From IMG/VR virus record IMGVR_UViG_2541047722_000019: a DNA stretch of 29,355 nucleotides. One strand, given 5' to 3'. Of the stretch, positions 2,411 through 26,757 are shown in pieces; the stretch's first letter is position 1; every line of letters starts with the position of its first letter. Below the pieces are notes generated by a model. The model had not been told where the DNA came from. It did no database searches and was given only the letters and a program-made list of their open reading frames with translations. The translations under genes and the position numbers were made by a program. Source of the stretch: a virus (taxonomy: Duplodnaviria > Heunggongvirae > Uroviricota > Caudoviricetes).

Positions 2411-2485
2411 GATTGTGCTCCTGTGTAAGTTCAGGGCAGTATGTCGGGAGAAGCGCGTGACGGATATTAAAGGAGATTAAGAAGA

Positions 2486-2501
2486 AGGGGCCGGAGCCCC
2501 T
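2486..2501 (-). terminator. Short GC hairpin (AGGGGC-CGGA-GCCCCT) after ORF 2508..2789; possible attenuator
   Basis: 6-bp GC stem with 4-nt loop, 7 nt after the stop at 2508, followed on the minus strand by a pyrimidine/T-rich stretch (TCTTCTTAATCTCCTTTAAT). Confidence 0.25.
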
Positions 2502-15727: not shown

Positions 15728-15857
15728 GTGTGTCTCCTTGTCTGGTGGAGACAGCATCACAAATACAGGGCGCGAAGGATTTTAAAGCGCGTTAAGAGAG
15801 CCGGGGATACGGGATGTGCAGGATAAACGATGAATTATTCACAGAGGAGAATACGAT
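15728..15857. promoter_or_regulatory. Divergent promoter region (late operon leftward, cargo operon rightward) with RBS-overlapping inverted repeat
   Basis: 130-bp gap between divergent starts 15727 (-) and 15858 (+). Perfect inverted repeat TGTCTCC(9)GGAGACA at 15731-15753, whose one arm is the GGAG ribosome-binding site of the late gene. Confidence 0.4.
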
Positions 15858-17195: not shown

Positions 17196-17251
17196 TCCCT
17201 AAACCACATTAACAGAAATCCCACTATCCCTGCCGCATCATGAAAGAACGA

Positions 17252-17282
17252 CCAGCCCGGTGCTTCGGACCCACCGGGCTGG
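17252..17282. other. GC-rich perfect hairpin (11-bp stem, CTTCGG-containing loop)
   Basis: CCAGCCCGGTG-cttcggacc-CACCGGGCTGG. No clean T-tract on the plus strand; a weak one (TCGTTCTTTCA) on the minus strand. Confidence 0.35.
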
Positions 17283-17386
17283 CCATCGTCCCACAGAAGT
17301 GGCTGTGAGCCGACCGAGGTTCAGTCAGTCTCGCGAGACCAGACTAGCCTGCCATATTTTTAATAATTGTAAAAGGCTTACAGATT

Positions 17387-18151
17387 ATGAAAATGAAGAC
17401 ATTACCCATCGTTCCATGGATTGGTGGCAAACGTCGCCTGGCAAAACACATCCTGCCGCTGTTTCCGGCGCATGAATGTTATGTGGAGCCGTTTTGTGGG
17501 GCAGCAGCGCTCTATTTTCTTAAGACACCCGGCAAGATCGAAGTCATCAATGATATCAACGGTGAACTGGTGAATCTGTACCGGGTGGTAAAGCATCACC
17601 TGGAAGAATTTGTCCGCCAGTTCAAATGGGCGCTGGTCAGCCGTCAGATCTACAAATGGCTGCAGATCACCCCGGAAGAAACACTGACGGATATCCAGCG
17701 TGCGGCACGGTTCTACTACCTTCAGAAGCAGGCGTTTGGCGGCAAGGTGGCAGAGCACAGCTTCGGTACCTCCACCACATCCCCGCCACGCTTCAACCTG
17801 CTGCGTATTGAAGAAGAACTGTCAGCAGCACACCTGCGGCTTTCCAGAACAGTCATAGAACACATGGACTGGCAACAGTGCATTGAGCGTTATGATCGTC
17901 CGCACACACTGTTCTACTGCGACCCACCGTACCTGGGTACGGAAGGCTATGGTGTGGATTTTCCTGAAGGGAACTACTCGCGGCTGGCAGAGCTGGCCCG
18001 GTGCATCAGAGGAAAAATGATAATTTCGGTGAACGATATCCCACAGATGCGCGAGGTGTTCACTGGACTGAACATACAGACAGTGAACATCAACTACAGT
18101 CTGGCGGGGAAATCTACGCCGCGCCGTGAACTGGTAATCTGCAACTTCTGA
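17387..18151 (+). CDS. dam: N6-adenine DNA methyltransferase, Dam family (orphan, no adjacent restriction gene)
   Basis: N-terminal WIGGKRRL and VEPFCGAAALYF (SAM-binding motif I) plus FYCDPPY catalytic motif. 254 aa, close to E. coli Dam in size and motif order. Confidence 0.85.
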   Translation: MKMKTLPIVPWIGGKRRLAKHILPLFPAHECYVEPFCGAAALYFLKTPGKIEVINDINGELVNLYRVVKHHLEEFVRQFKWALVSRQIYKWLQITPEETLTDIQRAARFYYLQKQAFGGKVAEHSFGTSTTSPPRFNLLRIEEELSAAHLRLSRTVIEHMDWQQCIERYDRPHTLFYCDPPYLGTEGYGVDFPEGNYSRLAELARCIRGKMIISVNDIPQMREVFTGLNIQTVNINYSLAGKSTPRRELVICNF

Positions 18152-18706: not shown

Positions 18707-18895
18707 ATGACTGCAGAACAAGTCAAAGCTCTCTTCCGCCAGCGCGGGATCACTTTCACCCGCTGGGCAGAAGAAAACGGCTACAACCGCAATGAGGTAT
18801 ACCGCGTTCTCAATGGGCAGACCAAAGCCCGTTACGGTAAATCCCATGAAATCGCCGTGAAGTTGGGGCTGAAATCAACAGCTCAGGCAGCCTGA
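18707..18895 (+). CDS. Ner/Cro-like small DNA-binding regulator
   Basis: 62 aa, AGGAG 6 nt upstream, first gene of the early operon divergent from the repressor. Residue pattern RQRGITFTRWAEENGYNRNEVYRVLNG parallels Mu Ner. Confidence 0.55.
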   Translation: MTAEQVKALFRQRGITFTRWAEENGYNRNEVYRVLNGQTKARYGKSHEIAVKLGLKSTAQAA

Positions 18896-24054: not shown

Positions 24055-24249
24055 ATGATATTTAAATGTATTCAGTGCGAGAGGGATATAACAGCCCTGC
24101 GTTTTCACAGCGCCATCGCCGTGATGTCCGGTAAGTACCACGTACCTGCAGTACGCGTCACCCTGGTCTGTCCGTACTGCAGTCAGCATTTTTCGGCAGA
24201 CGTGCCCGTCATGGAATTCTCCCGCCCTGACAGGGAGGACTCGCAATGA
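24055..24249 (+). CDS. Small zinc-ribbon-like protein
   Basis: 64 aa with two CxxC pairs (CIQC ... CPYC); GAGGAG upstream. Confidence 0.45.
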   Translation: MIFKCIQCERDITALRFHSAIAVMSGKYHVPAVRVTLVCPYCSQHFSADVPVMEFSRPDREDSQ

Positions 24250-25945: not shown

Positions 25946-26387
25946 ACAACGTCTTATCCAGCTCATTCATATTGCCCGTAATGAACTGGGTATGGATGAA
26001 GACACCTACCGCCAGATGTTACAGGGGCTGACCGGTAAAGCCTCAACCAAAGGAATGGATACCACACAACTAAACTGCGTGCTGGAATCCATGAAAAGGA
26101 AAGGCTTTCGCGTTAAGCCTGCCGGAAAAGCCAGCTCCGGTTTACCGCTGGATAACCATCCGCAGTCCAGGAAAATCCGTGCGCTATGGCTTGAAATGGC
26201 TGCTGCCGGCATTGTTCGTGACCGTTCAGAAAATGCATTAGCGCGGTGGATCAAGCGGGAAACGGGCATCAGCGCCCTGCGCTGGCTCAGTACTGAACAG
26301 GCAAGCAGTGTTATTGAGAAACTGAAGAAGTGGCAGCGCAGAGCTGCGGGAGTCAAACATGAGCGACCTGAATCAGTTTCGAAGTAA
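25934..26387 (+). CDS. GemA-like early protein
   Basis: ATG with AAGGAG upstream; immediately upstream of the Mor-like gene, as gemA is in Mu. Confidence 0.55.
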
Positions 26388-26757
26388 AGGGCCGGAACTC
26401 CTGGTGGAGCTGGCACAGCATACCTCTGAGACCGTTCGCGAGATTATTGATATTGAGCCCGCAATTGCCGACCAGATTGGTCAGGCCGTCGCGAACCGAA
26501 TGATGCAGGTCTGGGGCGGGCAAAACGTTTATTTCCCGATGGGCATGGTATGGAAGGTCAGTCAGCGCGACCGGGAAATCTTCAGGGAGTTTAACGGACG
26601 CAACCACCACGAACTGGCCCGCAAGTTTGGTGTTTCGCTTCAGTGGGTCTACAGCGTGGTTAAGCGGGTCAGAAAAGAAGAACTGGATCGGATGCAGGGC
26701 AGGTTGTTTGATGAAGATCTGCCAGAGGAGACGAAAGACGTTAACAAATCCAGATAA
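26359..26757 (+). CDS. mor: Mor/C-family transcriptional activator
   Basis: 132 aa; GGQNVYFP and FNGRNHHELARKFGVSLQWVYSVVKRVR match the Mor/C C-terminal DNA-binding region. Last early cistron. Confidence 0.8.
   Translation: MSDLNQFRSKGPELLVELAQHTSETVREIIDIEPAIADQIGQAVANRMMQVWGGQNVYFPMGMVWKVSQRDREIFREFNGRNHHELARKFGVSLQWVYSVVKRVRKEELDRMQGRLFDEDLPEETKDVNKSR

Follow-up and report, generated by a model that had tools for sequence, protein, structure and literature searches.

A predicted Mor/C-type late promoter overlaps a hairpin at the holin ribosome-binding site of BcepMu-like transposable phages

The window, that is, the whole stretch of 29,355 nucleotides of caudoviral DNA analysed here (IMG/VR record IMGVR_UViG_2541047722_000019), is, judging by PHROG, Pfam and BLAST matches, a BcepMu-like transposable prophage of E. 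coli with the holin gene as its first late gene. The holin region was matched in 638 of 5426 complete E. coli genomes (about 12%), with many ST131 strains among the matches listed, and relatives of the prophage were also found in Burkholderia, Pandoraea, Pectobacterium and other genera. Late and early genes are read in opposite directions, and the features discussed below are collected in Table 1.

Immediately ahead of the holin gene the minus strand reads GTGATGC-TGTCTCC-ACCAGACAA-GGAGACA-CAC-ATG, with the GGAG of the Shine-Dalgarno (SD) sequence paired within a 7-bp stem, as a first-pass annotation had described; the two arms and the loop span 15753-15731. Folding of the leader by RNAfold, proposed there as a check, bore this out, and the program added flanking pairs that take in the AUG as well (36 nt, -12.2 kcal/mol, z -2.2). 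The same stability over 36 nt was equalled by 7 of 200 shuffles. When the energy needed to open the holin SD was computed from the window sequence alone, z was 1.8 and 6 of 100 shuffles were as high.

The heptamer TGTCTCC, which forms the 5' arm of the repeat, was correctly noted in that annotation to recur before the I-like gene, where it lies 24 nt ahead of the ATG. By itself it is not enriched in the window, with seven copies seen against 3.8 expected and 11 of 100 shuffles reaching seven. The composite TTAAAATC-N23-CTGTCTCC occurs in exactly two copies, both on the minus strand, one ahead of the holin gene and one ahead of the I-like gene, and the count stays at two with three mismatches allowed, versus 0.08 expected in the window. 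The composite is clearly non-random; the heptamer and the holin SD pairing, each taken singly, are only marginally above chance.

Table 1. Features of the window that bear on late transcription and on holin translation.
Feature	Position	Strand	Remarks
Early operon	from about 18900 rightwards	plus	Ner-like gene, transposase A and B, Gam, GemA, Mor-family activator last
Small CxxC...CxxC (zinc-ribbon) ORF	24055-24249		in early operon; PHROG of unknown function
Mor/C-family transcription activator gene	26359-26757	plus	Pfam PF08765 Mor, E 1e-43; 35% identity to Mu C over 82 aa
Repressor-like HTH gene	18759-18268	minus	holin strand, upstream of holin
Gene without assigned function	16981-16577	minus	holin strand, upstream of holin
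Holin promoter: proposed activator binding site TTAACGCGCTTTAAAATCC	15795-15777	minus	imperfect dyad TAA-N8-TTA; top PWM match of the window, score 45.2
Holin promoter: predicted -10 hexamer GATGCT	15758-15753	minus	no -35; position conserved in relatives
Hairpin 5' arm (anti-SD) TGTCTCC	15753-15747	minus	promoter positions -7 to -1
Predicted +1 (A) of late lysis operon	15746	minus	conserved C-A; start codons in relatives
Hairpin loop ACCAGACAA	15746-15738	minus	9 nt
Hairpin 3' arm GGAGACA	15737-15731	minus	includes holin SD GGAG
Holin start codon ATG	15727-15725	minus	preceded by CAC spacer
Holin gene	15727-15377	minus	first of leftward late region; PHROG 1528 holin, E 6e-55; Pfam Holin_2-3, E 1e-41
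Late genes after holin		minus	leftward: SLT endolysin, spanin, small and large terminase, portal, F, G
Gap between gene G and I-like gene		minus	214 nt
Two terminator-like hairpins	8556-8539, 8473-8460	minus	between gene G and I-like promoter
Second late promoter: dyad CTAAAGCAGATTAAAATCG	8397-8379	minus	PWM score 26.2
Second late promoter: -10 CAAACT	8360-8355	minus	
Second late promoter: TGTCTCC	8355-8349	minus	
Second late promoter: predicted +1 (G)	8348	minus	
I-like SD region GCGGGACAG	8337-8329	minus	complementary to CUGUC(U)CCG(A)C
I-like protease/scaffold gene	8324-7209	minus	followed by major head gene, sheath, tube
Terminator-like hairpin	2501-2486	minus	just before third promoter; terminator scan
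Gap ahead of tail gene		minus	98 nt
Third late promoter: dyad TTAATCTCCTTTAATATCC	2480-2462	minus	PWM score 25.2
Third late promoter: -10 CATACT	2443-2438	minus	
Third late promoter: predicted +1 (A)	2431	minus	
Tail gene	2410-2075	minus	PHROG tail protein

Late promoter architecture and predicted start of transcription

Holin leaders were gathered from 46 bacterial genomes, about 180 viral contigs and four cultured phages, and were anchored at the first T of TTAAAA, here called a (a = 15785 in the holin promoter and 8387 in the I-like promoter). All but one of 53 anchored leaders are gap-free from the dyad to the hexamer at a+27 to a+32. Conservation was counted over 27 non-redundant promoters less than 85% identical to one another. 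The TAA at a-9 to a-7 and the TTAAAA carry about 2 bits per position, and the spacer of 19-20 nt on the 3' side of TTAAAA is fixed in length and free in sequence, its first 19 nt each carrying less than 0.75 bit. Beyond the spacer lies a hexamer NAnnnT with A at a+28 (-11) and T at a+32 (-7), each in 26 of the 27 promoters, followed by a G at a+33 (-6) that is kept in 25. A C-A step is found near the start, with C at a+38 in 25 promoters and A at a+39 in 23. The dyad centre is 30.5 bp ahead of the hexamer, which corresponds to -42.5 or -43.5 for a +1 at a+39 or a+40, respectively. A scan of the holin upstream gap with the sigma-70 consensus revealed no -35/-10 pair on the minus strand. The whole pattern, in which the -10 hexamer is reduced to its two critical positions (-11A and -7T) and the start is a pyrimidine-purine step, is typical of a sigma-70 promoter that depends on an activator.

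The C protein of phage Mu binds an imperfect dyad centred at -43.5 in promoters that have a -10 hexamer and no -35 (PMC2582627). By this architecture, the element shared by the holin and I-like leaders is a Mor/C-type late promoter made up of an activator dyad, a -10 hexamer and a discriminator, and the product of the ORF at 26359-26757 is presumed to be its activator. The first-pass annotation had suspected a control element common to the late operon starts, and this promoter, with TGTCTCC as its -7 to -1 segment, would be that element. The heptamer recurs ahead of the I-like gene because the same promoter, with the same TGTCTCC discriminator, is present there.

In the window, PhiKM and BcepMu alike, all matches to a PWM derived from the holin promoters fall in gaps that precede the first late gene of an operon. 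At least three copies of the late promoter are present in the window (15795-15746, 8397-8348 and 2480-2431), together with a weaker candidate ahead of dam. The I-like copy has the same spacing as the holin copy and is conserved in relatives with an I-like protein about 74% identical. The third copy, ahead of the tail gene, lacks TGTCTCC and has the discriminator GCCCTG instead. In PhiKM, a close relative, the top four matches precede the holin, I-like, tail and baseplate genes, with dam in addition, and in BcepMu the top three precede the holin gene gp21, gp32 (the equivalent of Mu I) and gp49. Inverted repeats flank the -10 hexamer even at promoters that have no SD close by, as in GGGGGC-AATACT-GCCCCC of the PhiKM baseplate gene and CGCCC-GATGAT-GGGCG of BcepMu gp32.

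Start codons in several relatives indicate where transcription from these promoters would begin. The annotated ATG of the PhiKM baseplate gene (17272) lies exactly at a+39 and has no SD; likewise, that of BcepMu gp49 (30823) lies exactly at a+39 with no SD upstream. In three beta-proteobacterial lineages, the start codon that homology supports for the I-like gene occupies a+39 or a+40 and likewise lacks a canonical SD. Metagenomic relatives are among those with a start codon at exactly this place. A start codon exactly seven nucleotides after the -10 hexamer is a hallmark of leaderless mRNA. The ATGs that fall on the predicted +1 in PhiKM and BcepMu therefore imply leaderless mRNAs. Start codons at a+39/40 would be hard to explain unless these positions are themselves the +1, and the start is predicted at A15746 for the holin operon and at G8348 for the I-like operon.

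The 5' arm of the holin hairpin consists of the last base of the -10 hexamer and the six bases before the predicted start, and the late holin mRNA would thus lack it. RNA beginning at 15746, the predicted late mRNA, is unstructured (-0.5 kcal/mol), and in RNAs starting at a+39 the opening of the SD costs only 1-3 kcal/mol. The first-pass annotation had placed the hairpin on the late mRNA itself, a placement that is probably wrong: the 5' arm lies 5' of the predicted +1, so the hairpin should form only on transcripts entering from upstream.

A start upstream of 15753 would restore the hairpin to the functional late mRNA, for example with TAAAAT (15784-15779) as the -10 hexamer. Under such a scheme the structure would damp or delay holin synthesis in the service of lysis timing and would perhaps be relieved by a Com-like protein. 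In favour of this reading are the stability of the hairpin, which extends over the AUG, the likeness of TAAAAT to a -10 hexamer, and the precedent that lambda S offers for the control of holin dosage by 5' RNA structure. A small zinc-ribbon ORF of unknown function is available at 24055-24249. In addition, one distant relative, L093, is a misfit to the downstream start, having a good SD that overlaps the -10 hexamer and a GTG at a+40; to use this SD it needs a start upstream of a+25, and its leader fits better with a start site further upstream. However, TAAAAT/G was rejected as the -10 hexamer on three counts: 11 of 27 promoters would then carry G at -7, a critical position; the dyad would run into the -10 instead of sitting near -43; and the invariant spacing to the downstream NAnnnT and C-A, both conserved, would go unexplained. 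The start codons exactly at a+39/40 in PhiKM, BcepMu and others favour the downstream start. In the beta-type phages, RNA starting at a+13 has a truncated 5' arm, and its SD sequestration is down to chance level. Further, no match to the Com family was found in Pfam or PHROGs. A hairpin acting on the late mRNA is, on this evidence, unlikely.

Some other candidates were tried and rejected. Activation of the com-mom type was set aside on the same lack of a Com hit in Pfam and PHROGs, the sole small CxxC...CxxC ORF being situated in the early operon. A dual-start holin of the lambda S sdi type was rejected on the N-terminus MKNLKKF, which has a single Met. The in-frame ATG at 15757, considered as a second holin start, falls within the -10 hexamer and lacks an SD, and its frame is not kept in relatives, in which the distance from a to the ATG ranges from 58 to 63. 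In an Rfam scan no family reached its gathering score; the match to RF03012 (Mu-gpT-DE) owed its 14 bits (E 0.97; gathering score 49) to the SD-AUG string.

Conservation of the holin hairpin across relatives

Sequestration of the SD was assessed by how much free energy it takes to open positions -15 to -5 in the RNA from -100 to +20, in comparison with dinucleotide shuffles of the upstream part. A leader was taken to pass when at most 8 of 200 shuffles reached the observed value, and 26 representatives less than 80% identical were compared. The mean per-base unpaired probability of the SD was discarded as a measure, since the purine-rich SD finds partners in shuffled upstream sequence with about the same frequency. 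SD sequestration passed the shuffle test in 19 of the 26 holin leaders, while at the start of the next gene, used as a control, 3 of 26 did so and the distribution was flat. Opening the SD in the long RNA costs 10-22 kcal/mol versus 5-8 kcal/mol for the shuffles. Four of about eleven independent lineages (L021, L041, L044/47 and L050) showed no significant sequestration in this test.

The strands that pair with the SD differ between groups of phages. The enteric phages have the stem GTCTCC/GGAGAC, with the variants GCCTTC/GGAGGC (L004), GCCTCC/GGAGGC (L046) and GGCTCC/GGAGGCC (L175). The corresponding stem is TCTGCCTGA/TCAGGGAGA in Symbiopectobacterium and ACCACCTC/GAGGTGGT in the Pectobacterium group, and CCCCTCCTGAAAT/ATTTCAGGAGGGG, GACCTTCCCG/CGGGAGGGTC, GACCCTCC/GGAGGGTC and CCTGTCCCGA/TCGGGAGAGG occur in the beta-proteobacterial phages. 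The predicted pairing of the SD is conserved through these unrelated stem sequences, and the comparison indicates that the hairpin NEVERTHELESS, when judged across the family, is selected. Absence of the motif from the homologous leaders of related phages had been set in the first-pass annotation as a refutation; the motif is not absent, an outcome that favours a real element.

The beta-type phages have the strongest structures. All 14 distinct leaders of this type form hairpins of -28 to -39 kcal/mol in which the SD is base paired and the apical hexaloop is the -10 hexamer itself; the holin leader of BcepMu folds at -28.4 kcal/mol (z -5.95). RNAalifold applied to the beta group recovered the inner stem and missed the outer, anti-SD stem, which is present in 14 of 14 per-sequence folds. 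The outer stem is missed because the 5' arms stand in different registers within the promoter spacer of fixed length. Because the 5' arm starts at a+6 to a+8 in these phages, the full stem can form only in transcripts initiated upstream of the promoter.

Within the enteric group, a covariation analysis of 20 sequences gave one compensatory cell, no better than shuffles, and the constraints on promoter and SD alone could be sufficient to conserve the stem there. It is accordingly conceivable that the discriminator GTCTCC and the extended SD GGAGAC are complementary by chance and that the hairpin has no function in enteric phages. Such a by-product would suit the separate constraint on each arm, the near absence of covariation in this group, the marginal statistics of the window taken alone and the third late promoter, which would work with a different discriminator. 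It does not suit the compensatory enteric variants L004, L046 and L175, nor the transitions, which are biased towards G.U-compatible changes by about eight to one. In Lonsdalea, moreover, the anti-SD GTCTCC has been shifted into the promoter spacer with the -10 hexamer unmoved, and the unrelated stems of five further lineages all target the SD. We regard chance complementarity as quite improbable.

One-sided substitutions in the stem are nearly all G.U-compatible on the sense strand, which suggests that the repeat acts as RNA and not as a palindrome in DNA. A function of the inverted repeat in DNA, either as the operator of a dimeric regulator or as an aid to the activator in promoter opening, would account for the repeats that flank the -10 hexamer at the PhiKM and BcepMu gp32 promoters, where no SD is involved. 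Mu C is reported to act partly by unwinding promoter DNA (PMC4461284), which would be in keeping with such a function. However, arm position, arm length and loop length all vary widely among relatives (loops from 3 nt to more than 28 nt) and pairing with the SD is the sole constant, and the G.U wobbles that are tolerated would be mismatches in a DNA palindrome. A role in DNA thus appears very improbable.

Possible transcription from upstream and comparison with known systems

In BcepMu, the holin strand carries a cI/cro-type repressor gene, gp17, followed by gp18, gp19, gp20 and then the holin gene, and the stop codon of gp20 lies inside the activator dyad. In many other relatives a same-strand gene, encoding a signal-peptide/lipoprotein moron, a membrane protein or an XRE-type repressor, ends 66-170 nt before the holin ATG. 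These upstream genes are expected to be active in lysogens, with their transcription aimed at a lethal holin gene. The window has the mirror arrangement, in which extra genes on the opposite strand are inserted and the nearest gene upstream of the holin gene is divergent. A scan of the minus strand from 16577 to the holin gene detected no terminator-like site. The HTH gene at 18759-18268 and the gene at 16981-16577 are candidate sources of read-through, which in the window would need to come from 0.85-2.5 kb away and through antisense sequence.

We propose, as the probable explanation, that the repeat is the RNA half of a promoter-in-hairpin fail-safe, which masks the holin ribosome-binding site on read-through transcripts only. 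The minus-strand DNA at 15795-15746 would act as a Mu-type late promoter with its start at A15746. A transcript from this promoter would begin in the loop without the 5' arm, leaving the ribosome-binding site free, and holin would be made. A transcript entering from upstream would carry both arms; its source could be the repressor-strand genes of the immunity region or, in other phages of the family, moron genes. Such an RNA would fold GGAG and AUG into the hairpin, and the holin would remain untranslated in a lysogen or early in infection. The repeat with its conservation and covariation, the layout of the promoter, the activator gene and the start codons on the predicted +1 of relatives are observed; the start site in the prophage, the existence of read-through transcripts and their effect on translation are the steps that we infer in this scheme.

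The I-like leader has a local fold that the first-pass annotation did not include, in which CUGUC(U)CCG pairs with CGGGACAG; here, the folding check gave -10.7 kcal/mol (z -4.5). Pairing of the I-like SD was not significant in the 120-nt context test. Changes in the I-like leaders of relatives all stay pair-compatible, and the holin loop in L168 and L171 resembles the I-like leader. From these sequences the holin and I-like leaders appear to share a common origin. For the I-like gene, whose upstream neighbours are themselves late genes, a fail-safe would have little evident use.

More tentatively, the whole late regulon of BcepMu-like phages may be licensed by its promoter. Either the +1 would be the A of the start codon or the promoter would lie in hairpin-coding DNA, so that late proteins could be translated only from their own activator-dependent promoter. 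The holin would be SD-led and masked on read-through RNA, and the protease/scaffold and baseplate genes would be leaderless. If this is true, the lysogen would be shielded from transcription of the repressor strand and of morons and would not depend on terminators for this.

Outside the original BcepMu paper (Summer et al., 2004), which lay beyond the scope of our literature search, no earlier publication was found to describe the element, late promoters of the BcepMu type or mapped start sites. If the fail-safe is true, the late-promoter code of this phage group would be defined, and the tolerance of lysogens to immunity-region and moron transcription aimed at the holin gene would be explained. 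The principle of a promoter inside a hairpin, as in T4, would be extended to temperate phages with sigma-70 promoters, and mutations that make a prophage self-lytic would become predictable. Start-codon annotation could also be corrected, for example in BcepMu gp32, and probable leaderless late mRNAs could be flagged.

Several known systems resemble parts of this arrangement. RF03012 (Mu-gpT-DE) is likewise a candidate structured RNA of Mu-like phages with its 3' end formed by SD and AUG (AGGAGAUuaACAUG); it is located downstream of gpT, unlike the holin hairpin. In Mu com-mom and the sdi structure of lambda S, the ribosome-binding site of a late gene that is toxic or linked to lysis likewise has a hairpin. 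However, the hairpin of mom forms part of the functional mRNA and Com, a zinc-finger protein of which no homologue was found here in Pfam or PHROGs, opens it, and the sdi stem-loop splits initiation between two start codons, whereas the holin gene in the window has a single start. In contrast to both, the hairpin here is predicted to be absent from the functional mRNA.

The promoter itself is closest to those served by Mor and C in Mu. Both systems have an activator of the same family, a dyad about 43 bp upstream, a -10 without a -35, and copies ahead of lysis, head, tail and DNA-modification genes; a terminator just upstream of a promoter is another feature in common with Mu C-lys. The differences lie in the dyad, which is TAA-N8-TTA with TTAAAA here and of the TTAT...ATAA type in Mu, and in the activators, with a single gene here as opposed to the Mor-then-C cascade of Mu. 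Unlike in Mu, the late genes here are divergent from the early operon, and some late genes in the BcepMu-like family appear to be leaderless. The overlap of promoter and anti-SD arm seen here is undescribed for Mu.

The nearest parallel to the proposed fail-safe is found in phage T4. Translational control of the T4 lysozyme gene e was reportedly described by McPheeters and colleagues in 1986. In the long transcripts of T4 genes e, soc, 49 and I-TevI, the ribosome site is shut up in a folded structure. The stretch of DNA that specifies the 5' strand of this structure holds the late promoter, so that the late transcripts of these genes lack the strand and are translated (PMC3014915). As with gene e, the SD and AUG of a lysis gene would be held in a hairpin on transcripts started upstream, a likeness known here from sequence alone, and the -10 hexamer (15758-15753) and predicted +1 (15746) would bracket the arm at 15753-15747. 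The T4 late promoter, TATAAATA, is read by gp55/gp33, whereas the promoter here appears to be of the sigma-70 type and dependent on a Mor/C activator. T4 is virulent and the danger comes from its early and middle transcripts; here the phage is temperate and transposable, and read-through from immunity or moron genes is the likely threat. Finally, it is the lysozyme that is protected in T4, and here it would be the holin.

The slot upstream of the holin gene and the holin start

The same-strand slot adjoining the 5' side of the holin gene is a cargo hot spot among the relatives (L001, L004, L006, L017, L020, L028, L030, L032, L040, L043, L046 and L049), where it is occupied by secreted proteins or lipoproteins, membrane proteins or an XRE repressor; the cargo of L006 and L020 is a possible SLATT-like 2TM protein. 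The recombination boundary is the module of holin promoter and leader, from ~15798 in window coordinates, which is common to otherwise unrelated upstream regions. Two in-frame start codons 5' of the holin ATG (see table) could lengthen the protein by 10-11 residues. Since these starts lack an SD and their frame is not conserved in the relatives, they are probably meaningless.

Late-promoter and start-site features in the window and in relatives
Feature	Sequence	Coordinates	Strand	Remarks
Third late promoter (predicted)	TTAATCTCCTTTAATATCC-N19-CATACT	window 2431-2501 (with the hairpin)	minus	+1 A2431
Terminator-like hairpin		window 2501-2486	minus	directly 5' of third late promoter
Candidate late promoter ahead of dam	CTAAACCACATTAACAGA-N19-CATCAT	window 17200-17400	plus	weaker match to late-promoter model; predicted +1 17248; PWM 13.9
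Alternative in-frame holin starts	GTG, ATG	window 15755-15760	minus	GTG 15760; ATG 15757, within -10 hexamer
64-aa ORF, early operon	two CxxC pairs (zinc ribbon)	window 24055-24249	plus	PHROG 3401, family without annotated function
Leaderless-looking late gene, PhiKM (L307)		17223-17275
Leaderless-looking late genes, BcepMu (L265)		30774-30826; 18812-18865

The -10 hexamer and start sites in relatives

Short perfect inverted repeats bracket the -10 hexamer in beta-proteobacterial relatives (L188-L212, L265-L279) and in PhiKM (17252-17271), as in ATGCCGyC-CAAGAT-GrCGGCAT, CGCCC-GATGAT-GGGCG and GGGGGC-AATACT-GCCCCC. They carry compensatory changes, with one pair CG:8/UA:8, and are present also at promoters without a nearby SD. 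Such repeats could fold into a hairpin in the RNA of read-through transcripts, or could help promoter opening.

Three viral contigs (L196, L207 and L222) retain the activator motif together with a 14-bp palindrome that surrounds GACCAT, and their holin SD lies ~65 nt further downstream. A U-rich stretch (AUUGCUUU) follows 3' of this palindrome, so the palindrome could serve as a promoter-overlapping terminator.

The baseplate genes of PhiKM and BcepMu and the I-equivalent gene of BcepMu (gp32) look like leaderless late genes. In both phages the ATG annotated as the baseplate gene start lies exactly 7 nt 3' of the -10 hexamer. For gp32, an ATG at 18862 is backed by homology and coincides with the predicted +1; the start annotated at 18850, which falls within the -10 hexamer, is probably incorrect. 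The sole case at odds with the predicted start site is an IMG/VR contig (L093) whose I-like gene is 41% identical. It carries the activator motif, a strong SD (GGGAG) that shares bases with the -10 hexamer, and a GTG start at a+40, counted from the first T of TTAAAA in the dyad.

Further candidate promoters and resemblances to Mu

The early-operon ORF is similar in size to Com of Mu, and no family match supports a Com identity. The third late promoter, predicted upstream of a tail gene (2410-2075, minus strand), shows the terminator-then-promoter order also found in the window's gap between gene G and the I-like gene, and at C-lys in Mu. On the plus strand, the candidate promoter ~140 nt 5' of the Dam methyltransferase ATG (17387) is also kept in PhiKM. 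The predicted dam leader has a strong fold (-54 kcal/mol, z -3.6), and its SD region would be covered by a long-range stem (CUGUGAGCC/GGCUUACAG). The site and predicted leader are reminiscent of Mu mom, which is C-dependent and translationally controlled.
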